Source of the DNA: Planctomycetota bacterium
GTDB lineage: Bacteria > Planctomycetota > MHYJ01 > WSZJ01
DNA: 64,000 bases
NCBI GenBank assembly: GCA_038060895.1
Contig: JBBTCT010000009.1
Span: 208,082 to 272,081, forward strand
Reading direction: 5' to 3'
Shown: in pieces, positions 8 through 35,565 of the stretch
Position numbering within the stretch: the stretch's first letter is position 1
Layout of the letters: the number at the start of each line of letters is the position of its first letter
Program-made: the position numbers and the translations under genes
The notes under the pieces: generated by a model
The model's input: only the letters and a program-made list of their open reading frames with translations
What the model was told of the DNA's origin: nothing
Database searches by the model: none

Positions 8-3000
8 GTGTCGGATCTCGTGATGATCGAACGAACGGGCCGCGAGGGGCTTTTCTACGTGACCGACGCCGCCACCGGCAAGCCGGAGGACGGCGCCGAC
101 GTGCGAGTGCTGGAGCGGATCACGTGGTGGGCCAACGGCAAGCAGCAGGTGCAGGACAGCAAGTTCTCGAAGAAGACGGACGCGGACGGGCTCGCTTTCG
201 TCGATTTCACCGGCGGAAACCGCGGCGCGCAGGTGATGGCGTTTGCGAAGAAGGACGGGCGGCTGGCCATCGCGATGCCGGCGCACCACTACTGGTCGGA
301 AGAAGGCGGGCGCGGGGCACGCATCGACACCTGGACGGACCGTCCAGTCTACCGGCCGGGACAGGCCGTGAACTGGAAGGCAACGATCCGGGTTCCACGC
401 ATGACCGGATACGCCGTGCCCGAGGAGCGGACCGTGCACGTGAAGATCACGGACCCGAAGGGAAACGTGCTGGCCGACAAGGACCTGAAAACGAACGAAT
501 TCGGGAGCATCTCGGGAACCGTAACTCCGGCCGTCAAAGCGGCGCTCGGGGTGTACTCGATCCAGATCCAGGGACCCGAGAATTCGCGCGGCTGGAGCCA
601 GTTCCGCGTCGAGGAGTACAAGAAGCCTGAAGTGAAAGTCGAGGTCGTCGCAAAGACGGAGCTCGCAAGACTTGGAGAAGGGTTGACCGCCGAAATTCAC
701 GCGGACTACTACTTCGGCGGCGGCGTCCCCAACGCCGACGTCCACTACACCGTGACCCGTCGCGGATACCATTTCTGGTACCGCGAGCCGCAGGAGTTCG
801 ACTGGTACTACGGCGACCGCTGGGGCCGCCCGGGCCGCGACTGGAACGAAGAAGTGATCGTTGATGGGCGCGGCAAGACCGACGAGAACGGCGTGCTCCT
901 CGTCGAGTGGTCCACGCTGAAGGCGAAGTCCGAGATGCCGAATCAGGACCATGAGTACGAGATCCGCGCGGAAGTCACCGACGCTTCACGCCGCACCGTT
1001 GAAGGAACCGGAACCGTCAGGGTCACGCGGACGCAGATGTTTGCGACCATCTCCCCGAAGCGCGGCTTCTACACAGCCGGCGACCACGTGGAGATCGAGC
1101 TGAACACCCAGAACGCGAACAACCTGCCGCTTCCCAGCGAAGGGACCATGACGGTCGCCCGCATCGTCTGGGACGCGAAGATCGAGCCCAACGGGAACTG
1201 GAAGGACGAGCCGTTCTATACGGAACCCGCGACGACCGGGAAGGATGGCCGCGGCTTCTGGAAGTGGCAGGTGGATCGGGGCGGCTTCTACGCGTTCATC
1301 TTCGAGTCGAAGGACGGCTGGGGTGAGAAGGTGACGGGGCGCACGACCATCAACGTTGCGGACCCGAACGCCGCGAATGCCGCGGCAAGGTTCCGGGAAC
1401 TCGACCTTTCGCCCGAAGAGCGCACCTACCGGCCGGGGCAGACGGCGCGGATCCTTCTGTGGAGCGACGTGGCGGGCGCGGCCGTGCTTGTGACTACGGA
1501 AGCAAACCAGACGACCCTGAGCCGGCAGGTGGTGAGGCTGGAAGGGAAGTCGAAAGTGCTGGAGTTCAAGCTGGCGGAAGCTCAGTGCCCGAATTTCCAC
1601 GTGAAGGCGGTGACGGTGCGGAACGGCGAAGTCCACCAGGCGCACACGGAAATCTTCGTGCCCCCGGCGGACAAATTCCTCGACGTGAAAGTGACGCCCT
1701 CGAAGCCGGAATACAAGCCGGGCGAACACGTGCGCTACGACATCAGCGCGACGGACTGGCAGGGGAAGCCGGCCCAGGCGGAATTCGCGCTGGCGGTGTT
1801 CGACAAGAGCGTGCTTTATATCGCGCCGTCGAACGTGCCGGACCTGCGGCTCTCGTTCTGGGGCGGCCGCCGCTGGGCGAACGTGAACATGATGACGTCG
1901 CGGCAGTTCAGCACCAGCCCGACAACCTCGGACGGCAACAAATACCCCGAATTCAAGCTGCACGGCGACCCCGCCGGATACGGCGGTGGCGGGCGCTTCG
2001 GCGGCCGGCGCGGTCGCTCGAAGGGCGATGACGGCGGGGCCTGGGCTCCGGACGCTTCGACGGGTTTTGCCCCGGGCGCGGAGGAGTCGGACCACAATGA
2101 GTCGGCCGACCGCGAGGACCTGGCCGAGGGCGGTGCGGAGCTGAAGAAGCTGGAGTCCAAGGAGAAGGCTCCGGCCTCCCCGAAGCCGGCCGCCGACCCG
2201 GCGAACAAGGACGGCAAAGCGCGCCAGGAGCAGCAGGGTGGCGGCGGCGCGGCCGGCGCGGAGCCCGTGGTGCGCAAGAATTTCGCCGACACGGCCTGCT
2301 GGTCGCCGTCGGTCGTCACGGACGCGGACGGCAAGGCCACGGTTGAGTTCGACATGCCCGATTCGCTCACGACGTGGCGCGCGGTCGCACGCGGAATGGA
2401 CACCTCCACGCGCGTCGGCGGCGCTTCCGCCGAAGTGCAGACCCGCAAGACGCTCATGGCCCGGCTGCAGGCGCCGCGGTTCTTCCGCGAACGCGACGAG
2501 CTCCTCATCAGTGCGATCGTGAACAACGCGGCGAAGGTCGATGAGCAGGTCAAGGCGACGCTAAAGCTCGAGGGCGGCACGCTCGAGCTGGGTTCTCCGG
2601 AAGCGATCGACATCAAGGTTGCGGCCAACGGCGAGGTTCGGCTCGACTGGAAGGTGAAGGCCACGAAGGAAGGCTCGGCGCGCATTATCGTCAGCGCGGT
2701 CGGCCAGCAGGACTCCGACGCCATGCAGCTCGATTTCCCGGTCTACGTCCACGGGATGGACAAGCTTCAGAGCTGGGCCGGCGTCGTGAAGGGCGACACC
2801 GAGACGGCGACCTTCACGATCGACGTCCCCGCGGACCGCAAGGTCACCACGGCGGACCTGACGATCCAGATCAGCCCGACGATGATGGGAGCTCTTCTCG
2901 ACGCGCTGCCTTACCTCATCGAGTACCCCTACGGCTGCGTCGAACAGACGATGAGCCGCTTCCTCCCCGCGGTCGCCGTCGCCAAAACGCTGAAGGACAC

Positions 3001-4468
3001 CGGAATCAACCTGGAAGACGTGGGCAAGCGCCGCGAGCTTGCGTACGCCGATATCGCCCCTTCGAAGAACGCAGTGTTCCACACGGCGGCGCTGGAAGCG
3101 ATCGTCGAGCAGGGGCTCAACCGCCTGTACGGATTCCAGAACGGCCACGGAGGCTGGGGCTGGTGGCAGTCGGACAAGATCGATCCGTTCATCACGGCCT
3201 ACGTCGTCAATGGCCTGCGCGTCGCCAAGGCGGCGGGCGCGCCGGTGGATGCGAACCGGCTGCAGAACGGAATCAACGCCCTGAAGAACGGCCTGCGGGA
3301 GGAGAAGGACCTGCATCGCGCCGCGTACTGCGCCTACGTCCTGGCGGAGTGCGGGGCGCTCGACGTGAAAGATCGCGAGCACCTCTACACGCGCCGCGGC
3401 GACATGAACAGCTACGGCCGCGCGCTCATGGCGATGGCGCTTCATCTTTCCAAGGACAAGGAAAAGGCCGAGGTCTGCATCCGCAACATGGAGGACTTCG
3501 TCAAGGTGGACGAGAAGGCCGGCACCGCCTGGTGGGATCGCGAAGACAAGTGGGCCTGGTGGTACTGGTACGGCGATGACGTCGAAGGGAATTCCGCGAT
3601 TCTCCGTGCTTACATCATGGTGGACCCGAAGAACGCGAACGTCCCGAGGATGGCGAAGTGGCTGCTGATGAATCGCGACGGAGTCCGCTGGAAATCCACG
3701 CGCGACACGGCGCACGCGATGCTGGCGCTCCTGGAGTACGCCAAGGTCGCCGGCGAGCTCAACCCCGAGTACACGGCCGACATCGAGGTGGACGGGAAGC
3801 TGCTGAAGTCGTTTGGTGTGACCAGCGAGAATGTTCTGACGCTGAACGCGGAGACGAAGGTCAAGGGCGACGCCCTCGAGACCGGGAAGCACACGATCAC
3901 GGTGAGGAAGTCCGGCAAGGGAACGGCGTACTGGAGCGTGTACCTGAAGTACTTCACGACCGAGGAGGACCTGACGGCCGGCAGCTCGAAGATGAGCGTG
4001 AGCCGGACGGTTTATCGCCTGAAGGGCCACGTCGAGAACACGAATGAGAACGGCCGCCCCGTGAAAAAGATGGTTTACGACCGTGAGAAGCTGGCCAGCG
4101 GTGCCAAGGTCACCAGCGGCGATTTGCTCGAGATCGAGATGGAGATCGACGCCCCGAACGACTACGAGTACCTGGTGTTCGAGGACTTCAAGGCTGCCGG
4201 CGTCGAGCCGACGGAAGTCGTGAGCGGCCGCGTGTGGGGAGCCCTCGACAGCAACCGGGAGTTCCGGGACGAAAAGGTCGCCTTCTTCGTGGACTGGATG
4301 CCCCGCGGGAAGCACAAGATCTCATACCGCGCGCGCGCCGAAATTCCAGGCTCGTTCCACGCCATGCCAGTGAACGGCTACGCGATGTACGCTCCCTCCG
4401 TCCGCGCCATCTCTGACGAGTTCAGGATCACGATCGAGGACAAGCCGACGGACAAGGGGACCAAGTAG
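8..4468 (+). CDS. Bacterial alpha-2-macroglobulin family protein (5' end lies outside the window)
   Basis: MG-domain motif TDRPVYRPG, FRVEEYKKP, MPDSLTTW, and intact thioester motif YPYGCVEQ. The frame is open to the window edge. Confidence 0.93.
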   Translation: MSDLVMIERTGREGLFYVTDAATGKPEDGADVRVLERITWWANGKQQVQDSKFSKKTDADGLAFVDFTGGNRGAQVMAFAKKDGRLAIAMPAHHYWSEEGGRGARIDTWTDRPVYRPGQAVNWKATIRVPRMTGYAVPEERTVHVKITDPKGNVLADKDLKTNEFGSISGTVTPAVKAALGVYSIQIQGPENSRGWSQFRVEEYKKPEVKVEVVAKTELARLGEGLTAEIHADYYFGGGVPNADVHYTVTRRGYHFWYREPQEFDWYYGDRWGRPGRDWNEEVIVDGRGKTDENGVLLVEWSTLKAKSEMPNQDHEYEIRAEVTDASRRTVEGTGTVRVTRTQMFATISPKRGFYTAGDHVEIELNTQNANNLPLPSEGTMTVARIVWDAKIEPNGNWKDEPFYTEPATTGKDGRGFWKWQVDRGGFYAFIFESKDGWGEKVTGRTTINVADPNAANAAARFRELDLSPEERTYRPGQTARILLWSDVAGAAVLVTTEANQTTLSRQVVRLEGKSKVLEFKLAEAQCPNFHVKAVTVRNGEVHQAHTEIFVPPADKFLDVKVTPSKPEYKPGEHVRYDISATDWQGKPAQAEFALAVFDKSVLYIAPSNVPDLRLSFWGGRRWANVNMMTSRQFSTSPTTSDGNKYPEFKLHGDPAGYGGGGRFGGRRGRSKGDDGGAWAPDASTGFAPGAEESDHNESADREDLAEGGAELKKLESKEKAPASPKPAADPANKDGKARQEQQGGGGAAGAEPVVRKNFADTACWSPSVVTDADGKATVEFDMPDSLTTWRAVARGMDTSTRVGGASAEVQTRKTLMARLQAPRFFRERDELLISAIVNNAAKVDEQVKATLKLEGGTLELGSPEAIDIKVAANGEVRLDWKVKATKEGSARIIVSAVGQQDSDAMQLDFPVYVHGMDKLQSWAGVVKGDTETATFTIDVPADRKVTTADLTIQISPTMMGALLDALPYLIEYPYGCVEQTMSRFLPAVAVAKTLKDTGINLEDVGKRRELAYADIAPSKNAVFHTAALEAIVEQGLNRLYGFQNGHGGWGWWQSDKIDPFITAYVVNGLRVAKAAGAPVDANRLQNGINALKNGLREEKDLHRAAYCAYVLAECGALDVKDREHLYTRRGDMNSYGRALMAMALHLSKDKEKAEVCIRNMEDFVKVDEKAGTAWWDREDKWAWWYWYGDDVEGNSAILRAYIMVDPKNANVPRMAKWLLMNRDGVRWKSTRDTAHAMLALLEYAKVAGELNPEYTADIEVDGKLLKSFGVTSENVLTLNAETKVKGDALETGKHTITVRKSGKGTAYWSVYLKYFTTEEDLTAGSSKMSVSRTVYRLKGHVENTNENGRPVKKMVYDREKLASGAKVTSGDLLEIEMEIDAPNDYEYLVFEDFKAAGVEPTEVVSGRVWGALDSNREFRDEKVAFFVDWMPRGKHKISYRARAEIPGSFHAMPVNGYAMYAPSVRAISDEFRITIEDKPTDKGTK

Positions 4469-22994: not shown

Positions 22995-23456
22995 ATGCGA
23001 TGCCCCTTCTGCAAAGCTGATAACGACAAAGTCATCGACTCGCGCTCAACGAGCGACGGCGCGTCCATCCGCCGCCGCCGCGAATGCCTCGGCTGCAAGA
23101 AGCGCTACACAACCTACGAACGCTCCGAGGAACAGCCCCTCGTCGTCATCAAGAAGGACGGCACGCGCCAGCAGTTCGACCGGAAGAAGATTCTCGATGG
23201 GATCCGCAAGGCCTGCCAGAAGCGCCCGATCGAAACCCAGCGAATCGAAGACATCGTCGTTCGCATTGAACTGGACCTCTACGAGCGCTTCGAAAGGGAA
23301 GTCCCCTCGAAGGAAGTCGGCGAGCTCATCATGCGGGAACTTCGCGATCTTGACTCGGTCGCGTACGTGAGGTTCGCCTCGGTCTATCGCGCGTTCCAGG
23401 AAGCGAAAGACTTCGTGGATGCGGCGCAGCCGTTTGGCGAGAAGCCGAAAGGGTAG
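22995..23456 (+). CDS. nrdR: Transcriptional repressor NrdR
   Basis: MRCPFC..DKVIDSR..IRRRRECLGC, ATP-cone, VAYVRFASVY. Confidence 0.97.
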   Translation: MRCPFCKADNDKVIDSRSTSDGASIRRRRECLGCKKRYTTYERSEEQPLVVIKKDGTRQQFDRKKILDGIRKACQKRPIETQRIEDIVVRIELDLYERFEREVPSKEVGELIMRELRDLDSVAYVRFASVYRAFQEAKDFVDAAQPFGEKPKG

Positions 23457-23469
23457 GGTCGGAACCCGA

Positions 23470-25908
23470 TTACTTCCGCAAGCGCGAGTCCAATCGTTTC
23501 ACCGATGCCGCCGCGTCGGCCTGAACCCGCGGCGAAGGCGACTGCGCCGCAACCTTCGCGAGGACGTCACAGGCTTCGCGCGTTCCCATGCGCTCGAGTG
23601 CGGCGTTGGCGCGGAGTCGGCGAAGAATCGGGTTCCAGCTCACGAGGCCGCTCGACAGCCCATCGAGGTGCTTTTCGAGAACCGTGCGAAGGCGTGGGGT
23701 GGCCGCGGGACGGCGGGACGCGATGTTCACTTCGAATCGATCATTCATCGTCGCCAATTCTCCCATCCCGATTTCCTGTATCTCGGGGTCTTCCCTGGTC
23801 ATCCCGTGAATCGCGCGTTCCAGGGCAGCCAGTTGGGCCTGCGAGAGCGGAACCCGAAGGTCCCCGAAATCCAGCACTCGCGCCGAGAGGTCGTCGACGG
23901 ACGCAGGGGCCAACCGGAGTTGCTCCAGTGCCTTCCATGCGATCGCTGCGTCGTGAGACTGCAGGTCGTTCCAGCATTGATCGACATCGGTCCGTGCTCC
24001 CGACGCAGTCGCCCCCTCCAGGCGCCAGGCTTCGAGTCCGGTGAACCCCGAATTGGAGACGAGCATGGCGCCATCGGGCGAGAAGCAGGCGAGTGGCTTG
24101 CGGCTCGTTCCCATTTCCATCTTCAGGGAAGTGACGAACTTGCCGGTCCAGGCTTCGTGGAGATCCACGGTGCGATTTGAAGCGACGACATAGAGGCGGG
24201 CGTCTGGCGACCAGGCAATCGCATTCTCTCTCGGGTCGCTGACGACCAGGCGCGGGGCGCGAAGTCCTCGCAGCTCGACGCATTGCGGCTTGACCATTCC
24301 TGACTGCCTGTCCACCAGCTGAACTCCGGATCCGTCCGGGAGCCACTGGATCGTCGTCCGGAAGAATGTGTCGACTTCGGGCATCGGACCTGCTTCATCT
24401 GCTCCCGTTTCGGCGTTCCAGATTCTCAGGACTTTTCCTTGCGCGACTGCGAGACGTTTTCCGTCCGGGCTGAAGGCGACGGCAATCGAGTGGGACCGCA
24501 AGGTCGGAATCGTGATGCCCTCATTGCCTGCGCCGGGTTTCACCACCAGGAGTGATGTTTCGTCCAGCCCATATTCCAGATACGCCGCGCGCGTGCCATT
24601 GTCGGCAATGAGCACGGGTCGCTCCGAGCCTCCTCGTCTGGCGGTGGGCGTTTCAAGGAGTTCCCGTTCCCACGTCACGGCGGTCTTGGGCTTGGGTACA
24701 CCAAAGACCCTGTTTCCATCAGGCGTGAACACAGGCGCTGAGGTTCCATACACGTAGACGCCGGCCACCGAGCGAGTCCGACCAGTAGTCAGGTTCAGCA
24801 TTCGAAATGTGCCGTTCTGTGACTGGGTGGCTATTTCCTTGCCGTCCGGAGAGAACCCCATGGCAATCACGGCAAGGTCCGGATCGGGACCGCGAGATCG
24901 TTCCGACGCTTCCTGAATCGCTTCTGCGCGCGGCCGAATGCCCGGGCCGGCCAGCAGGAATTTCGCCGGATTCCCCGCAATGCGAAAGACCGTCGGGGAA
25001 CTCCGACCCCAGCCTGTGCGGAACCGGGACCACGCGCCCTGCACCGGCCAGATTATTTTCGTCTCACCGACAAGCGGAAGAACCAGTGCTCCATCCTGCG
25101 GAATCCAGCCGAACAGGCCGTTGGAAATCGCGGATGTTTCTGGAAGCGCGAGCAAGCACGTCTGGTTCGAAAGATCCCAGATCGCCGCTTCTCCCGTCGC
25201 AGAGAGGGCCGCGACCATGACTCCATCCCCGGACAGGCCGGTTTGAGTCACAGGGCTGCGGAATCCCGAGAATTCCTGTACTTCACTTCCATCTTCGGAC
25301 TTCAAGACGCGGACGGAACCGTCCTGAAAACCGGCGGCCACTCGCGAGCCGTCTCCCGAGATGCCGAAGGACGAGACGATTGGGACACGGGCTTCGGTTC
25401 GATAAAGAACCTTTGACGGCCCAAGCCAGACGGCCAGATCCCCAGCCTCCCCGATGGTGGACAGCCTCCCGTCCGGAAGAAATGCAATCCCGGCGACGCC
25501 CGACGCATGTCCCTGCCATCGCTTCAGATCGCACCCGTCGATGCCGCACCACGCGACTTGGCCGGTTTCGAACCCCCACGCGAGGCGTGTTCCTTCGGAA
25601 TTGAGCGAGATGCCGCGAAAGGCGGAGGCGTCCTCGAGAAGCGTGAAGCGGTTTTCTTTCGAGTGGACATCGCGAAGTCGGACGACGCCGCCCCGAGTCG
25701 CAAGGGCGACACGCGAGCCATCATCCGAGGCTCCCATGAAATCCCAGCCGGAGTCCTGGTCCAGGTAACACTCCGCGATGAGGCCGAGCGGTGGCCTGCC
25801 GGGTCCCTGGAGTTCGACCCTTGCAGGACGGAAGAGATCGGGCGCGTCTTCGGCAGCCGCCGGCGCTGTGAGAAAGAGGAGGACGGCTATCAGCGACGTG
25901 AAGCGCAT
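23470..25908 (-). CDS. Exported WD40 / beta-propeller protein with helical C-terminus
   Basis: Signal peptide at ATG 25908; repeated FSPDG/WSPD/GH..V motifs. The upstream part of the ORF-track ORF is antisense to rfbB and spurious. Confidence 0.82.
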   Translation of the reverse strand: MRFTSLIAVLLFLTAPAAAEDAPDLFRPARVELQGPGRPPLGLIAECYLDQDSGWDFMGASDDGSRVALATRGGVVRLRDVHSKENRFTLLEDASAFRGISLNSEGTRLAWGFETGQVAWCGIDGCDLKRWQGHASGVAGIAFLPDGRLSTIGEAGDLAVWLGPSKVLYRTEARVPIVSSFGISGDGSRVAAGFQDGSVRVLKSEDGSEVQEFSGFRSPVTQTGLSGDGVMVAALSATGEAAIWDLSNQTCLLALPETSAISNGLFGWIPQDGALVLPLVGETKIIWPVQGAWSRFRTGWGRSSPTVFRIAGNPAKFLLAGPGIRPRAEAIQEASERSRGPDPDLAVIAMGFSPDGKEIATQSQNGTFRMLNLTTGRTRSVAGVYVYGTSAPVFTPDGNRVFGVPKPKTAVTWERELLETPTARRGGSERPVLIADNGTRAAYLEYGLDETSLLVVKPGAGNEGITIPTLRSHSIAVAFSPDGKRLAVAQGKVLRIWNAETGADEAGPMPEVDTFFRTTIQWLPDGSGVQLVDRQSGMVKPQCVELRGLRAPRLVVSDPRENAIAWSPDARLYVVASNRTVDLHEAWTGKFVTSLKMEMGTSRKPLACFSPDGAMLVSNSGFTGLEAWRLEGATASGARTDVDQCWNDLQSHDAAIAWKALEQLRLAPASVDDLSARVLDFGDLRVPLSQAQLAALERAIHGMTREDPEIQEIGMGELATMNDRFEVNIASRRPAATPRLRTVLEKHLDGLSSGLVSWNPILRRLRANAALERMGTREACDVLAKVAAQSPSPRVQADAAASVKRLDSRLRK

Positions 25909-25983
25909 GGCTCCATTCAACCGGTCCGGCCCTCCAAAACGAAGCGCGACGTTTCGGAATCCGCCGCATAGAATCCGCACGCC

Positions 25984-26994
25984 ATGCGCATCTTCGTCAC
26001 CGGCGGCTGCGGGTTCATCGGCTCGAACTTCGTGCGGTTCCTGCTGCGCGAGCGGGCAGACGCGCACGTCACGAATTTTGACGCGCTGACGTACGCCGGC
26101 AATCTCGAAAACCTGGCCGGGATCGAGGAGCACCCGCGCTACCGCTTCGTGCACGGGTCTATTCTCGACCGCGCGGCGGTGGACGCGGCGCTGAAGGACG
26201 GGGCGGACATCGTGTACAACTTCGCGGCGGAGTCGCACGTGGACCGGTCGCTGTACGAGCCGCAGACCTTTCTCGACACGAACGTGAAGGGCACCTCGAC
26301 GCTGCTCGAGGCGGCGATGAAGGCGAAGGTGAAGCGGTTCGTGCAGGTCTCGACGGACGAGGTATACGGGTCGCTGGGGAAGGACGGGGTGTTCACGGAG
26401 GCGACCTCGATCAAACCGTCGAGCCCGTACAGCGCGGCGAAGGCGGCGGCGGACCTGTGGGTGCTGGCGTACCACCACTCGTTCGGCGCGGACGTCGTCG
26501 TCACGCGCTCGTCGAACAACTACGGGCCTTACCAGTTTCCTGAAAAACTCATCCCACTTTTTATTTCGAACGCCCTCGAGAACAAGCCGCTTCCGGTCTA
26601 CGGCGACGGCAAACAGGTTCGCGACTGGCTCTTTGTCGAGGACAACTGCCGCGGGATCGAGTTGTGCGGCGTGAAAGGCAAGTCCGGCGAGGTCTACAAC
26701 ATCGGCGGCAAGTGCGAGCGCGAGAATCTCACGGTTACGAAAGCGCTTCTCAAGGCCGTCGGCAAGCCCGAGAGCCTGATCCAGTACGTCGCGGACCGGC
26801 CCGGGCACGACCGGCGGTACGCGCTGGACATTTCCAAGATCGAGAAGGAGCTCGGGTGGAGCCCGAAGGTGACGTTCGAAGAAGGGCTGCCGGCGACGGT
26901 GAAGTGGTACCTGGAGCACCGCGAGTGGTGGGAGCGGGTGAAGAGCGGGGCGTACCGGGAGTACTACAAGCAGAACTACGGCAAGCGGCTCTAA
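25984..26994 (+). CDS. rfbB: dTDP-glucose 4,6-dehydratase
   Basis: GGCGFIG, FAAESHVDRS, STDEVYG, YSAAK, NNYGPYQFPEKLIP, RPGHDRRY. Confidence 0.97.
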   Translation: MRIFVTGGCGFIGSNFVRFLLRERADAHVTNFDALTYAGNLENLAGIEEHPRYRFVHGSILDRAAVDAALKDGADIVYNFAAESHVDRSLYEPQTFLDTNVKGTSTLLEAAMKAKVKRFVQVSTDEVYGSLGKDGVFTEATSIKPSSPYSAAKAAADLWVLAYHHSFGADVVVTRSSNNYGPYQFPEKLIPLFISNALENKPLPVYGDGKQVRDWLFVEDNCRGIELCGVKGKSGEVYNIGGKCERENLTVTKALLKAVGKPESLIQYVADRPGHDRRYALDISKIEKELGWSPKVTFEEGLPATVKWYLEHREWWERVKSGAYREYYKQNYGKRL

Positions 26995-27176
26995 GGAGTT
27001 CCGGTTCCGCGCGGACTGCCGGCCGGCAATCTGGAATGGGCCGGCGACGGGTAAAATGCGGACAGGACCTTTCCGGTTCTGCCCCGCGCGACCCTCGTTG
27101 AGCCAGGATTCCTCACATGAACGCATCTGCCGATGATCCTCCGATCCTTCGTGGGGGGTGCGTCCATCGGGCCCGC

Positions 27177-28802
27177 ATGCGCTGGTTCGAGAAGCTCGTG
27201 GTCGCCGCGTACCGTCAGGGCGCGACGGTCATTCGGGCACGCGCCGGTCAGAGGTTCGCATTTCGATTCGGCGGAGAAACCCGAACGATTGGGACGCATC
27301 CGGTTCGAGAAGAGGATCTGCTCGATCGGTTGGGCGAGTTGCTTCCGAAGTCGCTGGCCAGATTTCTTCGCGTGGGCGGGCAGGTGGCGTTCGAATACGT
27401 CATCGTTCCATGGGCGCCGGCGCACGCTCACATATTTCACGGAGTTCGAGGGCTGGTCATGGGGGTCCGACTGGGCGGAGACGGTGAAGGAGTCCCGCAA
27501 CGCGCGACCCCGCCGGCGTCCAGGAAGCCGGTGCCGGGTGAAGAGGAGACTCAACTCTCGAAGCTGGTGCAGCCGTCTATCCCTCCGGATTCCGGAGAAC
27601 CGAATCTCCCGATCGCTCCGGTTTTCGGTGAAGGCGAGATCGAGATTCGTCCTTCCGAGCGGGACATTGACCGAATTCTTCGCGCGGCCTTCACCGCAGG
27701 CGCGAGCCAGGTGCTCATCAAGCCGCGCGCGCCGCTGGCGCTGAAAATCGGCGCGGGGTTCGTCCGCCCGGGCGCGCACGGCTTGTCTGCCGACTTCGTG
27801 GAGAAGCTGCTCGGCGAAATCCTGACGGCAGAGGAACGCTTCCTCCTGCTGCCGGACGCCGAGCTGCAGGTTGAAATCGGAGTGTGCCCGTTTGCGACCT
27901 GCGCCGCTGAAATCTTCCTCGGCGGCGGAGAGCCCAGTCTTCTCATCCGCCTTCCCGGGACCGAACTGACGCGGGAAGAGCCGCCTGCCGCGCCGCCTGC
28001 GGAGGCTCTCCGGCAGCCGCCGCCGAGCCTGACCGTCGAGGGATGCCGCCGGGAAATCCGCGATTGCATCCAGCAGTGCGCCCTGCTGCACGATCGCCGC
28101 GTCGCCGAGTCGGCGGCTGCGCGACAGAAGCGACCGGTTGCAGGGGAGGACTCGCGCGAGTTGCGGCTCGACTACGTGAAGTGGCTCGAATCCCGCCGGC
28201 GGTCGCGCCGCCTGATCGACCGGCTTCGCGCGGTCGTCTCCAGTACGGAGAGGGAGACGAGCCTGGAGATGGTCCGCGCGATTCTCCGGGAGTCCGTCGG
28301 GATCCATATCGAGATGAAGGACCTGAAGCCACCGCTGCCCGAGACACCGACGGCGGCCCCGGCCCTGGACCGCGGCTTCCCGGCGACCGGCTTTCCGCTC
28401 CTGAACGCAGGATTCGTGCTCGGTGCTTCCGAGTTGCTTCTGTTCGAAGGCGAAGTCCCCACCTACTTCATCAGCGGCGAGCCGAAGCGCCCGAGCTCGG
28501 CGCAGATTGCCCGGAAGGAGCTGGAAGCGCTTCTGGGCCTCTGGGAGACGGGCCCGGAGTACGACGCGGGCGAGGTCCCGGTGGCGGATGTGTTCCGGCT
28601 GAAGTTCACGAATGGGGACGTGGTGCGCGTCCTCGTGAAGCGGCAGGACGACCGTCTGGAAGTCACCGTGGTGTTCCTGAAAAGGGGAGGTGGAGCGGAA
28701 TCCGCCGGGGTGGGCGCCCTCCTCCCGAAGAATCCGCCGCGACCCTTCCTGCGCGCTCTTCCCCCGGATTCCGGCAATCAGAACCCTCCACTGCCGGCGT
28801 GA
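27177..28802 (+). CDS. Hypothetical protein with three PilT N-terminal-like domains and no ATPase domain
   Basis: Three ~100-aa segments align by eye to the N-terminal domain of the adjacent PilT; no Walker A. Start may be 27117. Confidence 0.7.
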   Translation: MRWFEKLVVAAYRQGATVIRARAGQRFAFRFGGETRTIGTHPVREEDLLDRLGELLPKSLARFLRVGGQVAFEYVIVPWAPAHAHIFHGVRGLVMGVRLGGDGEGVPQRATPPASRKPVPGEEETQLSKLVQPSIPPDSGEPNLPIAPVFGEGEIEIRPSERDIDRILRAAFTAGASQVLIKPRAPLALKIGAGFVRPGAHGLSADFVEKLLGEILTAEERFLLLPDAELQVEIGVCPFATCAAEIFLGGGEPSLLIRLPGTELTREEPPAAPPAEALRQPPPSLTVEGCRREIRDCIQQCALLHDRRVAESAAARQKRPVAGEDSRELRLDYVKWLESRRRSRRLIDRLRAVVSSTERETSLEMVRAILRESVGIHIEMKDLKPPLPETPTAAPALDRGFPATGFPLLNAGFVLGASELLLFEGEVPTYFISGEPKRPSSAQIARKELEALLGLWETGPEYDAGEVPVADVFRLKFTNGDVVRVLVKRQDDRLEVTVVFLKRGGGAESAGVGALLPKNPPRPFLRALPPDSGNQNPPLPA

Positions 28803-28871
28803 AACCTGTTAAACTTTAACATCTTCACCACACGCCCTTAGACCCGCACCGCGATCCAGGAGCCGAAGCCA

Positions 28872-30029
28872 ATGGATGACCTGAAAGACCTCGCCAACCT
28901 GGGGAAACCTGACGAATCGGGGCAGCAGCAGGCCTGGAAGGACATGGAGAAGTTGTTCATCGCCATGACCAAGAACAAGGCGAGCGACCTGCACCTCAAG
29001 CCGGGGATGCGTCCCGTGTTCCGCATCGCGACGGTGCTTCATGACGTCGGGAACCGGCCGCTGAAATACGACGAAGTGAAGCGGATGATCTACGAAATCC
29101 TTTCCGAGTCGCAGATCGACCAGTACGAGCGCGAGCTGGACCTCGATTTTGCGTATTCGATCCAGGGGTACGGGCGATATCGCGTGAACATTTTCCACGA
29201 CCGCGGCAACCCGGCGATGGCGGTCCGGCGCGTGAACACGGAAATCCCGAGCTTCGAGATGCTGAATCTCCCGCCGGGCGTGAAGAAGATTCCGACATTC
29301 AACCAGGGGCTGGTGATCGTGGCCGGCGCGACGGGCTCAGGGAAGTCCACGACGCTGGCGTCGATCCTGAATTACGTGAACGAGACGCGCAGGGTCCACA
29401 TCATCACGGTCGAGGACCCGATCGAGTACCTGTTCGAGGACAAGAAGTCGTTCCTCAACCAGCGCGAAGTCGGCATCGATGTCACCAGCTTCCAGAGCGC
29501 GCTCAAGCACGTCGTGCGCCAGAACCCCGACGTGATCCTCGTCGGCGAAATGCGCGACCACGCGTCGTTCGACGCGGCGCTTCAGGCCGCCGAAACGGGG
29601 CACCTCGTGTTCGGCACCATCCACGCCTCAAGCTCGGCGGGGACCGTCGGCCGAGTCCTCGATCTGTTCCCGACCGAGCGCCAGGACCTCATCCGGCAGG
29701 GACTCGTGTTCAACCTGAAGTGCATCGTCTGCCAGAAGCTGCTTCCGTCGTGCAAGGAAGGCGTCCGAATGGTTCCTGCGGTCGAGTTGCTGATGGTGAA
29801 CTCGACGGTTCAGAAAATGATCGCGCAGCGCGAGGACAAGAAGCTCAGCGACATCGTCCGCGGCGGCGCGGAAGAAGGCATGCAGGACTTCAACCAGTCG
29901 CTCGTCGCCCTCATTAACCAGGGCCTGATCACCAAGAAGGTCGGCCTCGCGTTCTCGCCGAACCCGGAGCAGTTGAAGATGAACCTGCAGGGGATTTACC
30001 TTGGAGAAGACCACAAGATCCTTGGGTAA
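28872..30029 (+). CDS. pilT: Type IV pilus retraction ATPase, PilT/PilU family
   Basis: ASDLHL, GATGSGKST, TVEDPIE, RQNPDVILVGEMRD, AAETGHLVFGTIH. Confidence 0.93.
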   Translation: MDDLKDLANLGKPDESGQQQAWKDMEKLFIAMTKNKASDLHLKPGMRPVFRIATVLHDVGNRPLKYDEVKRMIYEILSESQIDQYERELDLDFAYSIQGYGRYRVNIFHDRGNPAMAVRRVNTEIPSFEMLNLPPGVKKIPTFNQGLVIVAGATGSGKSTTLASILNYVNETRRVHIITVEDPIEYLFEDKKSFLNQREVGIDVTSFQSALKHVVRQNPDVILVGEMRDHASFDAALQAAETGHLVFGTIHASSSAGTVGRVLDLFPTERQDLIRQGLVFNLKCIVCQKLLPSCKEGVRMVPAVELLMVNSTVQKMIAQREDKKLSDIVRGGAEEGMQDFNQSLVALINQGLITKKVGLAFSPNPEQLKMNLQGIYLGEDHKILG

Positions 30030-30067: not shown

Positions 30068-30095
30068 AGGGCCCTGCTTCGGCGGGGCCTTTTTT
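30068..30095 (+). terminator. Rho-independent terminator
   Basis: GGCCCTGC-TTCG-GCGGGGCC followed by a T run. Confidence 0.85.
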
Positions 30096-30105
30096 CGTCC
30101 GAGCA

Positions 30106-31143
30106 CTAGTTGGCGAGCGGTGAATGACCGGCGTCCGGCGGTGTCGGAGGCGCGACTTTTTCAGCGCGGACCTCTGCCAACGCCTGACGAAGGGCGTCGT
30201 CCTCAGGATGGGACGCCAAGCGTGTTTCGCCGATCGCGATCGCCAGGTCGAAGCGGCGATCGGACCGAAGCAGAGCGAAGATTGCGAGCAGCGTCGGAGA
30301 TGATCGGGGATTGGGGAATAACTTCCGATACAGCCACCTGGCAAGGCGCCAGGACTTTGGAAGCAGATACAGCCCGAACAGGACGAGGAAAAACCAGATC
30401 GCGGCATTCGAACTACCAGGGGTCCTGATCCGATGGGAGACCACGACGCAGATCATCAAGAGCCCGACCATGACGAAGAGTGCCGTCGTGAAGGTCGAGG
30501 ATTGCCGCGACTTCTCGCGCGTTTCCAGTGCTCGCAGCAACGCGCGGTGATCTTGCAATTCCTCACGCTCCACGGGGGGAAGTGACTCCGGGGCAATCGC
30601 CTCGCACAGCAGGATGGCCTCATTCAGGTTACCCATCCTGGAGTTCAGCTTCGACAAGCGGTACCGCGTTCTCGAGTCACCCCCATCGGATTTCAGGGCG
30701 ACCTGAGCGAGTGCGATGGCTTCCGCTCGGAATCCGAAGAGGTCCAGTGCATCTACTATGTCTGTTGCGGGCGCGCCCGGAGCGAGGAGCACAGGGCGCA
30801 GCGTCATGACCACGGACAGCCCGGCCGCGACGAGGAGGAAGACAACGGCTGCAGCATTCAGCCACGGATACCAGACCGGAGGGACCCATGGCCTCGCAAT
30901 CCAGCACAGCAGTGATGCCGCAAAGTGCACTGCCCCGAGCCCTCTCCGAAGGTACTGCGAGTCTCCAGAGCGCTTTGATCGCCGGATGCCACGGAGAAGT
31001 GCGAGTCCCGCCCAGAAGATGACGAGGGACCCGACCAGGACCGAAACACCCCGGTAATCCTGCCAATACTCCGGATCGAGCAGATCCGCCAAGGCGCACT
31101 TCACGAGAAGATCATAGCAGCAAGTTGCGAGGGCCATTCCCAA
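30106..31143 (-). CDS. Membrane protein with TPR-like segments (start uncertain)
   Basis: About 5 TM helices; RYRLSKLNSRMGNLNEAI is TPR-like. Confidence 0.6.
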   Translation of the reverse strand: MGMALATCCYDLLVKCALADLLDPEYWQDYRGVSVLVGSLVIFWAGLALLRGIRRSKRSGDSQYLRRGLGAVHFAASLLCWIARPWVPPVWYPWLNAAAVVFLLVAAGLSVVMTLRPVLLAPGAPATDIVDALDLFGFRAEAIALAQVALKSDGGDSRTRYRLSKLNSRMGNLNEAILLCEAIAPESLPPVEREELQDHRALLRALETREKSRQSSTFTTALFVMVGLLMICVVVSHRIRTPGSSNAAIWFFLVLFGLYLLPKSWRLARWLYRKLFPNPRSSPTLLAIFALLRSDRRFDLAIAIGETRLASHPEDDALRQALAEVRAEKVAPPTPPDAGHSPLAN

Positions 31144-31175
31144 CTGCTCCCGCTTCTGGCATCCTCTCTCCCCGC

Positions 31176-32570
31176 ATGAAATTCTTCCGCGTCCGCCTTT
31201 CTTCTCCCGCCTCCTCCGCCGAGGATGCCGCCGCTTCGCTGGCGGAGGTCGGCTGCAGCGGCGTGCACATCAAGGAGGGCGAGCCTTCGATCCTCGAAGC
31301 GCACTTCATCAAGGAAGTTGCCACCGAGGCCGCGGCGGTCGCGACGGCCTGGGGCGCGAAGGTGGAGAGCGCGGAGTGGGTGGAAGAGGACGACTGGACG
31401 GATGCGTGGAAGAAGCGGGCTCTTCCGATGGTGATCGGGGGGTGGTATGTGCATCCGTCGTTCGAGGGGCCGAAGGCGGGGATGAGGAATCTGAAGATCG
31501 ACCCGGGGATGGCGTTCGGGTCGGGGGACCATGCGACGACGCGGCTGATGCTGCTGGAGATGGAAGAGATGGTGAAGGTGCGGCCGCTGGGGCGGGTGGT
31601 GGACCTGGGGACGGGCTCGGGGATTCTGGCGATGGCGGCGATCCAGCTCGGGGCGACGGAGGTCATCGCGTGCGACGTGGACCGGCGGGCGCTCGACGAG
31701 GCGAGGAAGAACGTGAAGGAGAACGGGATCGAGCGGGTGCACTTTCTGGAAGGATCGCTGTCAAAGTGTCCCGGGAAGTTCGACTCGATCATTGCGAACG
31801 TGACGACGGACGTGCACCTGAAGCGGAGCGGGGACTACCCGAAGAAACTGGCGCCGGGCGGGCGGGCGCGGCTGGGGGGAGTTCGTGCGGACGAGTCGGA
31901 TTCGGTGGCGTCGGTGACGGGGACGGAGCTGTCGCGGGCCTGTGAAGGGTGGACGGTGCTGAAGTATCCGGGGGAGGCGACGATGGCGCCGCCGCCGGAC
32001 CTTCCCGAGGACGGCGTGGCGACGCCGGTGGTGCCGGTGGGAAAGAGCTCTCCCGGTGCGAAGCGCTCCGAGGATCCGCCGACGTTTCTTCCCGGGCAGA
32101 TCCAGCCGGGGGCGTTCCGCGACGCGGAGCCTGCGGCCGTTGCCCCGCCACCTGCGAAGCCGGTGGAGCGGAGGCGCGGCGCGTTTCATCACATGGACCT
32201 GAACGTGTCAAACCTCGAGGACTCGCGTCTGTTTTATGCGCGGGTGCTGCCGCGATTCGGATTTGAGCGGGGAGAGACCGGGGCCGACGGTGTGACGTTC
32301 ACCCACGGCGACTTTCACCTGACGCTTCGCCAGACGAAGGACCCGTGGCGGACGAACGGGTTTCACCGGAAGGGCGTGGGCGTGAACCATATCGCGTTCG
32401 CGGCGCCGTCGAAGGAAGCGGTGGACGTGCTGAACGAGTGGCTGATGTGGGAGGGGATTGCGGTGCTGTACGGGGGGCCGATGGAAAAGGGGACCGCGGA
32501 AGCGCCGAACTATGCGGTTTATTTTGAAGATCCGGATCGGCTGAAGCTGGAATACGTCTTTCGTCCCTGA
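31176..32570 (+). CDS. prmA: Ribosomal protein L11 methyltransferase fused to a VOC/glyoxalase domain
   Basis: IDPGMAFGSGDHATT and DLGTGSGIL; Pro-rich linker; then FHHMDLNV...GVNHIAF...YFEDPDRLKLE. Confidence 0.85.
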   Translation: MKFFRVRLSSPASSAEDAAASLAEVGCSGVHIKEGEPSILEAHFIKEVATEAAAVATAWGAKVESAEWVEEDDWTDAWKKRALPMVIGGWYVHPSFEGPKAGMRNLKIDPGMAFGSGDHATTRLMLLEMEEMVKVRPLGRVVDLGTGSGILAMAAIQLGATEVIACDVDRRALDEARKNVKENGIERVHFLEGSLSKCPGKFDSIIANVTTDVHLKRSGDYPKKLAPGGRARLGGVRADESDSVASVTGTELSRACEGWTVLKYPGEATMAPPPDLPEDGVATPVVPVGKSSPGAKRSEDPPTFLPGQIQPGAFRDAEPAAVAPPPAKPVERRRGAFHHMDLNVSNLEDSRLFYARVLPRFGFERGETGADGVTFTHGDFHLTLRQTKDPWRTNGFHRKGVGVNHIAFAAPSKEAVDVLNEWLMWEGIAVLYGGPMEKGTAEAPNYAVYFEDPDRLKLEYVFRP

Positions 32571-32590: not shown

Positions 32591-33964
32591 TCAGGCCTGG
32601 GGCGCACTCTTCCGGCTTTTCGCCCACATCAGAGCGACGCCTGCGAACAGGAAACCCCACATGACGGGCAGCCAGCCCATCGGGCGCTTGTCGGGGGTCA
32701 ACGCGACGAGTTGAGCTTTCAGCTCCCTGGCATCGCGCTCGAACGAGGAGCGGACGCGCCGGCAATTCTCGGAGGAGACGCCGTGCGCGAGTGAGCCGAG
32801 CTCGTGGATGCTCCCGTCGAGCGCGGCCAGCGCCTCGCACCCTTCGCCGAGGTCGTGTCCCCGCTTCTGCGCCTTGTCCAGGAGCTGGTGAAGTTCCCGG
32901 AGGTCTTCGCGCGTCTTCGCGGAAATGTCCGAGATCTGGTTGCCGGCCTCCAGTTCCTTCGTCCCAGGCTCGTGGCACTTGCCGCAGGTCTTCGCCGCGA
33001 ACGGCGCTTCCGGCCTCCGCGCACCGTGTGCGCCGTGGCAGTGCTCGCAGTTTACCGGCGACGCCACGCCGCTCTGCGGGTCGGTCCAGGTCGCTTTGCC
33101 GTGCGGGCCCGCGGCGAGTTCCCGCGCCGGGCCCTCGTGGCAGCGCCCGCACAAGGCGCCCATCTCGTCGAAGCCCGGGACGCGCGCGAAGTGCGGACCG
33201 TGGCAAGCGGCGCACGAGGGAGCTCCGTCCTTGAGCGTCCGCGCGTGAGGCGAGCCGTCGAACTTCGCGACGAGCCCGTGGCTCAAGCCGTGGCTCTTCA
33301 TCACCTTCTCGTCGGAATGGCAGCGCCCGCACGTCGCGGATTGCCGCGTCACGTGGGTTTCGCTCGCGGGATTGGAAGAGCGAAGGGACTCATGCGCGTT
33401 GTGGCAATCGACGCAGGACGCCCCGTCTTCTTCCTTCTCTTCCAGCACGTTGTGCGCGTGCTTGCTTTTCGCGTACAGCGCCATCGCGTCCGCGCGCAGG
33501 CCGCTCCGCGCCATCTGCCCCGCGTCGCCGTGGCAGCGCGCGCAGGTTGCACCGACGTTCAGCTTCTTCGTCGGCGCATCTCCTTCGCCGCAGTCCACGA
33601 TCGAATGCGACGAAGGTGCGGCCGTCCGCGTGTGGCAGGAAGCACACGACGCCCCCGCCGGGTCTCCCTTCAGCATCCCCTCGATGTGCGGCGAGAGCTT
33701 CCACGCGTCCGTCGCCTTCTTGTGGCAGTCGCCGCACATCACGGCGAGCTGAAGCGGCTGCGGCCTGCCGATGAACTTCTTTGCCTCGGAATGCGACGCT
33801 TCCATTTCGGCGGCCGAAGGATCTCCGTTGTGGCAGTCGGCGCAGGAGAGCATGGGGTGGGCGGAATTCTCGACGGGCGCCTGCTGCGCGTCGTGGCATT
33901 CGATGCAGGTGTTCTGGGCATCGGCGGCGGCTGCGAGGAGAAGGAGAAGAAGGAGACGGTTCAT
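32591..33964 (-). CDS. Multihaem cytochrome c (11 CxxCH) with C-terminal membrane anchor
   Basis: Signal peptide; CIECH, CADCH, CGDCH, CASCH, CARCH, CVDCH, CGRCH, CAACH, CGRCH, CEHCH, CGKCH; coiled coil and terminal TM. Confidence 0.92.
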   Translation of the reverse strand: MNRLLLLLLLAAAADAQNTCIECHDAQQAPVENSAHPMLSCADCHNGDPSAAEMEASHSEAKKFIGRPQPLQLAVMCGDCHKKATDAWKLSPHIEGMLKGDPAGASCASCHTRTAAPSSHSIVDCGEGDAPTKKLNVGATCARCHGDAGQMARSGLRADAMALYAKSKHAHNVLEEKEEDGASCVDCHNAHESLRSSNPASETHVTRQSATCGRCHSDEKVMKSHGLSHGLVAKFDGSPHARTLKDGAPSCAACHGPHFARVPGFDEMGALCGRCHEGPARELAAGPHGKATWTDPQSGVASPVNCEHCHGAHGARRPEAPFAAKTCGKCHEPGTKELEAGNQISDISAKTREDLRELHQLLDKAQKRGHDLGEGCEALAALDGSIHELGSLAHGVSSENCRRVRSSFERDARELKAQLVALTPDKRPMGWLPVMWGFLFAGVALMWAKSRKSAPQA

Positions 33965-35112
33965 TTCGGCCTCCCGTAGGTGTCGAGCTTCCACTCGCGT
34001 CCGAAGACCCTCTCGCGGTTGTCGGAGACCGCCCCGAGGAACGTGAGAGCGCTCCATACCAGCACGCCGGCCGCGAAAATCGCCAGCGCTCGCTTCCGGT
34101 TTGCGGGACGGCGCTCGGGGGAGCGATCGAGGAAGGGGAGGAGCGCGAACGCCACGACTGCGAGAATCGGGAGAATCTGGCCGACTGTCTCGCCCGGCAT
34201 GCCGAGCACGCGCCCAGGCCAGTACTTCAGGTACTGGAAAAGCGCGAGGAAGAACCACTCGGGGCGAAGGCCGTCCGGTGTCGCGCCGCCGGCTTTCGGT
34301 GCGGGACCCGCCGGAAACAGCGCGGAGACGGTGATCAGCACCCCCGCCGTGACCGTCGCGGCTGCGGCGGCGCGCAGGGCGAGATGCGGGATCCACGGCG
34401 CGCCGCCCTCACTGCAGGCCGTGTGGCCCTTTTCCTGCTCCTCGTCCGTGCGGACCGCGGGCGCGAGCCCGAGTCGCCGCACCAGCCGCAGGTGCATCCA
34501 GAGGAGCAGGGCGAGCAGGGCGGGGAGGACGACGACGTGGAGCGCATAGAAGCGCGTAAGGGTTGAGGCGCCGATTTCGTCGCCGCCGCGAAGAAGGCGC
34601 GCGACGAGGCCTCCGACGAGCGGCGCTTCTTCGGTATGGCCGAGGCGCACGGCGGTTCCCCAGCAGGCCTCGTTGGTCCACGGGAGAAGGTGTCCCGTGA
34701 CCGAGAAGCCGAGCACGACGAAGAGGGCGAGGGCCCCCGCGACCCAGGTCAGCTCCCGGGGGCGCTTGTGGCCTCCCGAAATAAAAACCTTGGCTGCGTG
34801 CAGAAGCGCGAGCCCGACCAGCGCGTGCGTTCCCCAGGCGTGCACGGAAAGCCAGAGCCACCCGAGCGGCACCGAGTCCCGGATCTGCGCCACGCTCGCG
34901 TGCGCCGCTTCCGGCGTCGCCCTGTAATGGAACGCCAGGACGATACCGCTGACGCATTCCATTCCGAGGACTGTCAGCGCCATCACCCCCAGCGTCGCGC
35001 CCCACCCGACGTTCGGCGGCTGCGGGCGCGTCGCGTCCGCCACCACGCGGTCGCGCGATTCGCGCCACCCGGTGCGCCGGTCGAGGCCGTCGAGGAATCC
35101 GCCCCAGCTCAA
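33961..35112 (-). CDS. Cytochrome b subunit of a Rieske/cytochrome b complex
   Basis: Haem His pairs (VHAWG..LLH; ALH..MH), RELTWVAG, LLPW, RPEWFF Qo motif; TTG start overlaps the Rieske stop. Confidence 0.92.
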   Translation of the reverse strand: MSWGGFLDGLDRRTGWRESRDRVVADATRPQPPNVGWGATLGVMALTVLGMECVSGIVLAFHYRATPEAAHASVAQIRDSVPLGWLWLSVHAWGTHALVGLALLHAAKVFISGGHKRPRELTWVAGALALFVVLGFSVTGHLLPWTNEACWGTAVRLGHTEEAPLVGGLVARLLRGGDEIGASTLTRFYALHVVVLPALLALLLWMHLRLVRRLGLAPAVRTDEEQEKGHTACSEGGAPWIPHLALRAAAAATVTAGVLITVSALFPAGPAPKAGGATPDGLRPEWFFLALFQYLKYWPGRVLGMPGETVGQILPILAVVAFALLPFLDRSPERRPANRKRALAIFAAGVLVWSALTFLGAVSDNRERVFGREWKLDTYGRPK

Positions 35113-35522
35113 CCCGTCACCTCCCACGAATCGCCGGCGTCGATGACCGTGAAGCGGCGAAGGTCCGCGGGGGGCGGCCCGGAGAGGCGGCGCCCCTCCG
35201 GGTCGAAGGTCCCCTTGTGACACGGGCATAGAAAGCGCTTCTCGGCGTCTTCCCACCGAACGATGCAACGGGCGTGAGTGCAGACGAGGGAGAGCGCGAC
35301 GGCGCCCGAGCCGGACACGACCAGGACGAAGGGCGTGCCTCGCAGGGAACCAGCCGCGCGTCCGCCCGCCACGGCCGACTTGGGGATGCGCGTCGTCGAA
35401 GGGGGTTCTTCGCGGGGCCACAGCGCCGCGCCTGCTGCCGCGGCGCCGCCCACGGCCGCGGTCGCGGCCCACGCCCCAAGGGCGCGATTGAGGAAATCTC
35501 TTCGGCTGGTCGGCTCGTCCAT
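35109..35522 (-). CDS. Rieske iron-sulfur subunit (Tat-exported)
   Basis: SRRDFL twin-Arg motif; CTHARC...CPCH; GPPP. Confidence 0.93.
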   Translation of the reverse strand: MDEPTSRRDFLNRALGAWAATAAVGGAAAAGAALWPREEPPSTTRIPKSAVAGGRAAGSLRGTPFVLVVSGSGAVALSLVCTHARCIVRWEDAEKRFLCPCHKGTFDPEGRRLSGPPPADLRRFTVIDAGDSWEVTG

Positions 35523-35565
35523 CGGGTGACACGTTATCGCCGGCGGGCGGAACTCGCCACACGCG

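Follow-up and report, generated by a model that had tools for sequence, protein, structure and literature searches.

The window analysed here is a 64,000-nucleotide (nt) stretch of DNA from a Planctomycetota bacterium (GCA_038060895.1, contig JBBTCT010000009.1, positions 208,082-272,081 of the forward strand). Our subject is a gene within it, called gene X below, whose product (P0001) resembles the N-terminal domain of the pilus retraction ATPase PilT (N2D) and carries no ATPase domain. The original prediction placed a protein with three such domains directly upstream of pilT or pilU, and gene X does indeed end 69 nt before a bona fide pilT; this is, however, a single ATPase gene, with no separate pilU. 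The features of the gene pair are as follows, with positions counted from the first letter of the window and residues given as amino acids (aa).

27117-28802 (+): gene X (P0001, 561 aa), from its open reading frame (ORF) and translation; no ATPase, three PilT-N2D-like modules, the third probably so
27129-27482 (+): module A (aa 5-122), a degenerate PilT N2D, from BLASTP, shuffles and hhalign; predicted local distance difference test score (pLDDT) ~79-87
27483-27608 (+): linker 1, predicted to be disordered, Pro-rich; pLDDT < 50 for aa 123-180
27609-27971 (+): module B (aa 165-285), N2D-like and the family's core module, from BLASTP, TIGR01420 and hhalign; invariant A-S-Q, nearly invariant Cys262
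28014-28331 (+): helical middle region, three long helices predicted by AlphaFold2 (AF2) at aa 307-337, 346-375 and 383-401; pLDDT 80-92
28368-28691 (+): module C (aa 418-525), a divergent third module, probably N2D-like, from predicted models and hhalign to module B
28692-28799 (+): C-terminal tail, predicted to be disordered (pLDDT < 50), with the conserved motif LLPKNPP..RPFLRALPP
28803-28871 (+): spacer between X and pilT, 69 nt, no terminator-like site inside
28872-30029 (+): pilT (P0002, 385 aa), a complete retraction-type ATPase
30076-30098 (+): terminator-like hairpin and T-run 3′ of pilT, from a terminator scan

The PilT encoded here is conventional: it matches TIGR01420 with an E-value of 6.5e-118 and 393.9 bits (cut-off 319.1) and PF00437 with an E-value of 4e-45, and is 92-94% identical to its orthologues in three related loci (L001, L002 and L003). 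Gene X and pilT share a reading frame, with two in-frame stops between them (TGA at 28800 and TAG at 28839, by eye). Also by eye, AGGA can be read 8 nt 5′ of the ATG of gene X and AGGAG 9 nt 5′ of that of pilT, and the N-terminus of P0001 is conserved among its orthologues. Co-transcription of the two genes is possible, given the shared strand, the gap of 69 nt and the absence from that gap of a terminator-like site, in a scan that was itself weak (four sites across the region, where shuffles gave 3.0 +/- 2.0).

The relationship of modules A and B to PilT emerges from several independent comparisons. BLASTP aligned aa 23-118 of P0001 with PilT residues 22-119 (24% identity, E 4e-6) and aa 182-302 with residues 23-135 (22% identity, E 2e-5), and aligned the two segments to one another at E 4e-6. 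The strings that the original prediction quoted are indeed present. In Smith-Waterman comparisons with PilT residues 1-130, none of 2000 shuffles matched the score of A or of B, and the same was true (0/2000) of A against B. With hhalign, modules A and B matched the PilT N2D at 94.5% (E 7.5e-8) and 95.4% (E 1.9e-8) respectively, and one another at 98.4% (E 8.9e-15). A family profile run against PDB sequences gave 20 matches at E <= 10, of which the nine best were all PilT, PilU or DotB, covered the first 90-145 residues, and were headed by T. thermophilus PilT2 (5fl3, E 2e-6). P0001 itself matched no Pfam family at E <= 10, and its sole match in NCBIfam was a weak one to TIGR01420 (PilT/PilU), in which aa 184-278 align with positions 2-96 (E 0.0023, 17.2 bits). 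These comparisons identify modules A and B, at the level of sequence, as true homologues of the PilT N2D.

Module C is a different matter. Three segments had been predicted to align to the PilT N2D; the alignment stands for the first two and fails for the third, for which we found no significant match to PilT (BLASTP E 0.64, 786/2000 shuffles reaching the score, hhalign probability 4.8%) and whose proposed start at 28390 was off frame by one base. The third segment is related to module B, weakly (BLASTP E 0.043, 23/2000 shuffles, hhalign 90.7% with E 1.3e-6 over 55 columns). When an ESM Atlas model of residues 418-525 was used as a structural query, ten clusters among the matches listed were reached at template modelling (TM) scores by query of 0.70-0.78 over 92-99 aligned residues; PF00437 is found in 100% of the members of six of these clusters and in 56% of those of one, and the remaining three consist of unnamed proteins of 106-128 aa. 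An AF2 model of module C alone, from a three-sequence alignment, reached a mean pLDDT of 39.1, which ruled out its use in a fold search. We accept module C as N2D-like because of the Atlas-model matches and because the full-length AF2 model shows the same element order there; its fold is thus probably that of an N2D.

That full-length model, built from an alignment of the 11 sequences of the family described below, has a mean pLDDT of 69.3 and a predicted TM score (pTM) of 0.33. It contains three alpha/beta units (aa 10-119, 183-278 and 427-521) with a common order of elements: a helix, three strands, one or two helices and three further strands. Disorder is predicted in the linkers (aa 123-180 and 286-301) and in the tail (aa 524-561), and three long helices lie between the second and third units. 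Profile comparison of this helical region with the PDB returned coiled-coil proteins, weakly (E 0.4-2.6). A Foldseek search of the PDB gave 35 matches at E <= 1e-3, and all 17 of those listed are PilT, PilU or DotB chains aligned over 94-141 columns. The top match is P. aeruginosa PilT (3jvv_C, E 6.3e-6, root-mean-square deviation (rmsd) 2.4 Å over 99 columns), and the best rows have an rmsd of 2.1-2.8 Å over 94-103 columns, in an output that does not identify which module is matched. The expectation that the segments would adopt the PilT N2D fold is therefore borne out by the predicted AF2 units and these Foldseek matches together, and for module C through the Atlas model. A structural search of the Atlas with the whole protein gave TM scores of 0.25 or below throughout. 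Against a viral fold library there were four matches at E <= 0.001, with no stand-alone phage N2D mimic among them; two look like complete PilT/DotB-type ATPases, and the rmsd of the remaining pair is 22-23 Å.

Two further observations from the Atlas are best regarded as leads. Whole-protein feature matches of 0.86-0.89 were to unnamed clusters of 194-273 aa from Gemmatimonadota and Myxococcota. Separately, unnamed clusters of 104-128-aa proteins (58-192 members; Verrucomicrobiota, Myxococcota and Bacillota) are similar to module C, whether by features or by predicted structure, so that stand-alone N2D-like proteins may occur in other phyla and be more widespread than the X family.

The Walker A pattern [AG]xxxxGK[ST] is absent from P0001 and from every family member (0/11), in agreement with the predicted lack of Walker motifs; the neighbouring PilT has GATGSGKS. 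To judge the N2D itself we took as reference 53 aligned PilT sequences of the clade, in which 14 N2D positions are invariant, among them S38, D39, R51, R102, R104, R111 and R120. These were compared with 16 N2D-like copies (ten B modules, five A modules and the extra module of a fusion protein, P0013, discussed below) in a nearly gap-free alignment. R51 is conserved as Arg or Lys in 16/16 copies, and the Ser/Thr of the A-S-D motif and F108 are also kept. D39 is lost from all copies and is Gln in all ten B modules. The segment GRYRVN of PilT reads APAHAH in the first segment of P0001 and ATCAAE in the second, and the arginines are retained in 0/16 copies at R102, 0/16 at R111, 0/15 at R120 and 5/16 at R104. 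The replacement of the arginine strand that had been noticed in P0001 thus extends to the family, since the clade-invariant R102, R111 and R120 are gone from every copy. We take the arginine fingers of the motor to be located on the N2D and presumably to be found among R102, R104, R111 and R120. McCallum et al. describe two arginine fingers as fully conserved in the PilT/VirB11-like superfamily (PMC5424180, PMC6858323). A transfer to X of the Geobacter PilT closed-interface residues D32 and R81, named in the second of these papers (PMC6858323), was dropped, the numbering offset not being established.

Several class assignments were considered and rejected. P0001 does not belong to the PilT/PilU ATPase family: TIGR01420 scores 17.2 bits against the required 319.1, PF00437 is absent at E <= 10, and the Walker A motif and invariant arginines are missing. 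A PIN domain (PF01850) found no Pfam match at E <= 10 in P0001 or at E <= 1 in the 11 members, and the fold matches are the N2Ds of ATPases. The name PIN goes back historically to 'PilT N-terminus', and the resemblance to X is one of name only. The MshEN/T2SSE_N domain (PF05157), the cyclic di-GMP-binding N1 domain of PilB, GspE and MshE, gave no match at E <= 10. The same was true in Pfam of a PAS sensor domain, and PAS proteins appeared in the Foldseek search at ranks 43 and 46 only. The 11 members searched against Pfam yielded single-member matches at chance level only (E >= 0.024), and PHROGs and PADLOC returned no family for P0001, P0008 or P0010 at E <= 0.01.

The family is very small. 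Three proteins, the query among them, came out of a word-indexed search of 5.8 billion clusters, and a HMMER scan of 1.84 billion representatives found ten at E <= 1e-3. A profile of modules A and B run against proteins of 58-212 aa recovered P0010 only. A locus scan with a six-sequence alignment, covering one genome per species for 185,579 species, gave 95 pattern matches of which three were confirmed, all in metagenome-assembled genomes (MAGs) of Planctomycetota. The X family is lineage-restricted and confined to a few uncultured Planctomycetota. Among its 11 sequences module B is present in 11, module A in five and module C in three, so that members carry one to three N2D modules, and the length of the helical region also varies. 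Residues A196, S197 and Q198 are invariant and specific to the family, and C262 is nearly invariant. In the tail, LP[KRE][NDH]PP followed by RP..LRA occurs in eight of the 11 members, always 18-32 residues from the C-terminus, and is absent from P0004, P0005 and P0011. Six-frame translations of the window and L001-L003 contain this motif once per locus, in gene X only. The minimal members, P0008 and P0010, have nothing but module B and the tail motif in common.

Synteny could be compared across four loci, the window and L001-L003, and in all four the gene order is nrdR - rfbB - X - pilT - prmA - multihaem cytochrome. The linkage of homologues to pilT, on which the original prediction depended, accordingly holds throughout: X lies between rfbB and pilT in 4/4 loci, albeit in different forms. 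L003 has a one-module form of 286 aa. In L002 (5961-8268) the space from rfbB to pilT is taken up by a tandem pair of X paralogues, of which P0010 (207 aa) has one module and the tail motif, and P0004 (488 aa) two modules and a long helical C-terminus without the motif. Between genomes PilT is 92-96% identical, RfbB 85-95% and X 38-67% over aligned columns. For the window against L001, the method of Nei and Gojobori gave X a nonsynonymous divergence (dN) of 0.238, a synonymous divergence (dS) of 0.93 and a dN/dS of 0.26, compared with a dN of 0.038 and a ratio of 0.09 for pilT and a dN of 0.027 and a ratio of 0.06 for rfbB; the rate of X is 6-9 times that of its neighbours. The ratios are rough because X has a higher dS (0.93 against 0.42-0.45 in neighbours) and a lower G+C content at third codon positions (GC3; 0.77 against 0.87-0.91). 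By region, in the same comparison, dN/dS is 0.19 in module A, 0.11 in module B, 0.34 in the helices, 0.38 in module C, 0.25 in the tail and 0.63 in linker 1, which also has 29 gapped columns against L001. These values indicate that X is fast-evolving yet under purifying selection rather than neutral, and that the folded modules are its most constrained parts. The ORFs of X are intact in 4/4 loci at synonymous divergences of 0.4-1.9. Pseudogene-like decay, the other outcome that would have told against the prediction, is thus not what we see, with dN/dS at 0.26 overall and 0.11 in module B. A maximum-likelihood tree built from 26 N2D sequences resolves three clades: the B modules (support 96/91), the A modules (99/95), and the PilT N2Ds joined by the extra module of P0013 (98/97). 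Because A and B form separate clades, their split would predate the divergence of these genomes, and both have been retained since.

P0013 is a metagenomic protein of 569 aa, from a contig of 2,140 nt, in which an extra N2D-like module and a linker of ~70 residues precede a PilT that is 88% identical to P0002. The extra module lacks the arginines. It is 39% identical to the PilT N2D (E ~1e-25) and also matches P0010 (1.5e-11), module A (2e-6) and module B (7e-5). Resembling both PilT and the X family, it bridges the two in sequence and provides a gene-fusion argument for a functional tie between them. Since X and pilT lie in one frame, loss of the stops could give a fusion of the P0013 kind. 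A valine stands at the junction where PilT would begin, and pilT may therefore also start there alone. P0013 was analysed as a protein sequence, and the fusion may be an artefact of assembly or gene calling.

How does X compare with known systems? It shares the fold and element order of the N2D of PilT and PilU (3JVV, 6OJX/6OJY, 5FL3, 2EWV, 9N32), with sequence homology for modules A and B. Unlike in PilT and PilU, its modules are not followed by the linker and ATPase domain. Instead they are repeated in tandem, and a helical region and then a Pro-rich tail come after them. One of the two nearest functional analogies is PilU, described as a PilT-dependent accessory retraction ATPase whose gene often adjoins pilT (PMC6762196). 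Like PilU, which in that account is thought to act through PilT, X is a PilT-derived paralogue encoded beside pilT; unlike X, PilU is there a complete hexameric ATPase (PMC6762196). P0013, for its part, differs from the X family in forming one ORF with PilT, in having a single module and in lacking the helical region and LPKxPP tail. The other analogy is the phage protein Aqs1, for which binding to the N2D of PilB and disruption of PilB oligomerisation are described (PMC13436744). Aqs1 is small, non-enzymatic and acts at the N2D of a motor, a mechanism of the kind that we propose below for X. It differs in being phage-encoded and in having PilB as its target, the available text gives no sign that it originated from a motor domain (PMC13436744), and X has no PHROG match. 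We found no description in the literature, in a search whose coverage left out most subscription journals, of ATPase-less PilT-N2D proteins or of such a conserved gene upstream of pilT. The X family is a known domain, the N2D, in a new stand-alone and repeated architecture that is tightly linked to its parent gene.

The anatomy set out in the original prediction, of repeated PilT-N2D-like modules with no ATPase, replaced arginines and close linkage to pilT, is upheld; the role that it proposed, a motor-mimic adaptor or inhibitor of retraction, is putative. We favour, with a probability of roughly 0.4, the interpretation that X is a real, lineage-restricted gene which originated when the 5′, N2D-coding portion of pilT was duplicated, and that its product, putatively non-catalytic, most probably acts together with the neighbouring PilT or upon it. 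Two structural studies describe the contact that the N2D of one chain makes with the next chain's C-terminal domain (CTD), of ~1,600 Å2, as the principal inter-chain contact of PilT-like hexamers, forming their packing unit (PMC5424180, PMC6858323). It is plausible that a free N2D-like module would occupy the CTD surface meant for the neighbour's N2D, either on PilT or on a sub-hexameric pool of it, and that hexamer assembly, and hence pilus retraction, would be braked or modulated while the surface is occupied. Tandem modules and the helical middle part might give higher avidity or make X oligomeric, and the Pro-rich C-terminal motif might tether it to a further partner. With the arginines lost, we propose, a module could bind without supporting catalysis. 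In its most specific form this idea would make X an endogenous motor decoy, which caps the N2D-docking surface and keeps PilT in an inactive sub-hexameric reserve, or poisons hexamers, until it is released. We think this specific form unlikely. If true, X would be the first inhibitor protein of a type IV pilus retraction ATPase that is both encoded by the cell itself and built by self-mimicry, and its fast evolution and variable module number could reflect tuning, or conflict with pilus-specific phages.

Some of our own observations sit uneasily with a role exerted on PilT. The mismatch in rate between X and pilT is odd for the partner of a nearly invariant surface. Module number, middle region and tail all vary, which leaves module B as the one part able to carry a conserved function. 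The extra module of P0013 is attached in cis to a PilT that has retained an N2D of its own, an arrangement that an added, non-competing role would explain at least as well as a decoy would. This fusion and the rate mismatch both tell against a simple mimic that binds tightly. All family sequences come from MAGs or metagenomes, and the 64-kb window contains no other pilus gene that we could find, including the platform genes pilC and pilM. The main rival account draws on several of these points. It takes X to be an adaptor or scaffold that positions, recruits or replaces PilT at the pilus base by means of the LPKxPP motif and the helical region, serving as a detachable extra N2D with no competition for the packing unit. 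The cis fusion, with its module N-terminal to an intact PilT, the tail motif, kept in 8/11 members at a set distance from the end and forming with module B the sole parts common to P0008 and P0010, and the rate mismatch fit this account at least as well as they fit our preferred one. We nevertheless consider it doubtful: the window lacks pilC and pilM, three members are without the motif, and fast evolution counts against an adaptor just as it does against a protein acting on the PilT surface.

Two other accounts are less likely. X could be debris left by the repeated, partial duplication of the 5′ end of pilT: functionless, slowly decaying, and kept open by chance or through transcriptional or translational coupling to pilT. 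Its dN of 6-9 times that of the flanking genes, its low GC3, its variable architectures and the narrowness of the family would all suit such a history, as would the closest orthologue, P0003 (L001:3324-3644), which has lost the final strand of module B, otherwise the most conserved part, along with the linker after it (17 gapped columns). Against this, dN/dS is 0.11-0.38 in all folded parts as opposed to 0.63 in linker 1, the frames are open in all four loci despite their divergence, the well-supported A and B clades have been kept since before the genomes split, and A196, S197 and Q198 are invariant, with C262 nearly so; we consider debris quite improbable. Finally, X might be a PAS-like sensor, or a protein unrelated to pili that binds a small ligand or another protein and stands beside pilT merely by birth. 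The N2D fold is PAS-like, PpsR and DosP appear low in the Foldseek ranking (rank 43, probability 0.33, and rank 46, probability 0.21), viral PAS histidine kinases turn up in the viral fold library at E >= 5.5e-4, and the neighbours nrdR, rfbB and prmA are housekeeping genes. Yet all strong matches in sequence and structure are to PilT-type N2Ds, Pfam recognises no PAS domain at E <= 10, and both the adjacency to pilT in 4/4 loci and the fusion to PilT speak for a tie to the motor, so that we hold a PAS-like role to be very improbable.

The on/off switching of pilus retraction motors is poorly understood, and the known protein regulators and inhibitors mostly target PilB. In the X family, which is tied genetically to pilT and once fused to it, there is a concrete candidate for regulation by self-mimicry, the main inter-subunit contact of PilT being what is mimicked. 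The family further illustrates the birth of a new gene from partial duplication of a motor gene, followed by quick diversification.

Apart from X, the surroundings of pilT are of a housekeeping character (nrdR, rfbB, prmA). Upstream lie nrdR (22995-23456), a minus-strand gene for a WD40 protein and rfbB (25984-26994). The WD40 protein corresponds to the C-terminal ~810 aa (~23470-25902), with a signal-peptide-like start, of a listed 1218-aa ORF (23470-27126, minus strand) that is as a whole an artefact of GC-rich DNA, the remainder running antisense through rfbB. On the 3′ side of pilT come an unmatched 345-aa ORF on the minus strand, a PrmA-glyoxalase fusion and a cluster of Rieske, cytochrome b and multihaem cytochrome c genes. 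The 345-aa ORF (30106-31143), which separates pilT from prmA, was matched neither in Pfam nor, by tblastn, in L001-L003. In L001 and L002 the pilT-prmA spacer is far shorter (~200-350 nt), and we read the ORF as a variable insertion or else as a spurious frame of GC-rich DNA. The fusion gene (31125-32570, plus strand) joins PrmA, the ribosomal protein L11 methyltransferase, to a C-terminal glyoxalase/VOC domain, and is kept in 3/3 related loci. In the cluster that follows (32591-35562, minus strand), the Rieske protein, cytochrome b and a multihaem (MtrC/NrfB-like) cytochrome c stand in a row, as a bc-type complex with a multihaem partner, and synteny of the multihaem cytochrome extends to the related loci. 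Further away, the window encodes a bacterial alpha-2-macroglobulin of 1486 aa with MG2, bait-region, TED and MG10 domains (8-4468, plus strand), and two tandem paralogues of ~1000 aa (55438-58470 and 58516-61419, plus strand), both of which have an FHA domain at the N-terminus as well as a CAP (cysteine-rich secretory protein) domain.

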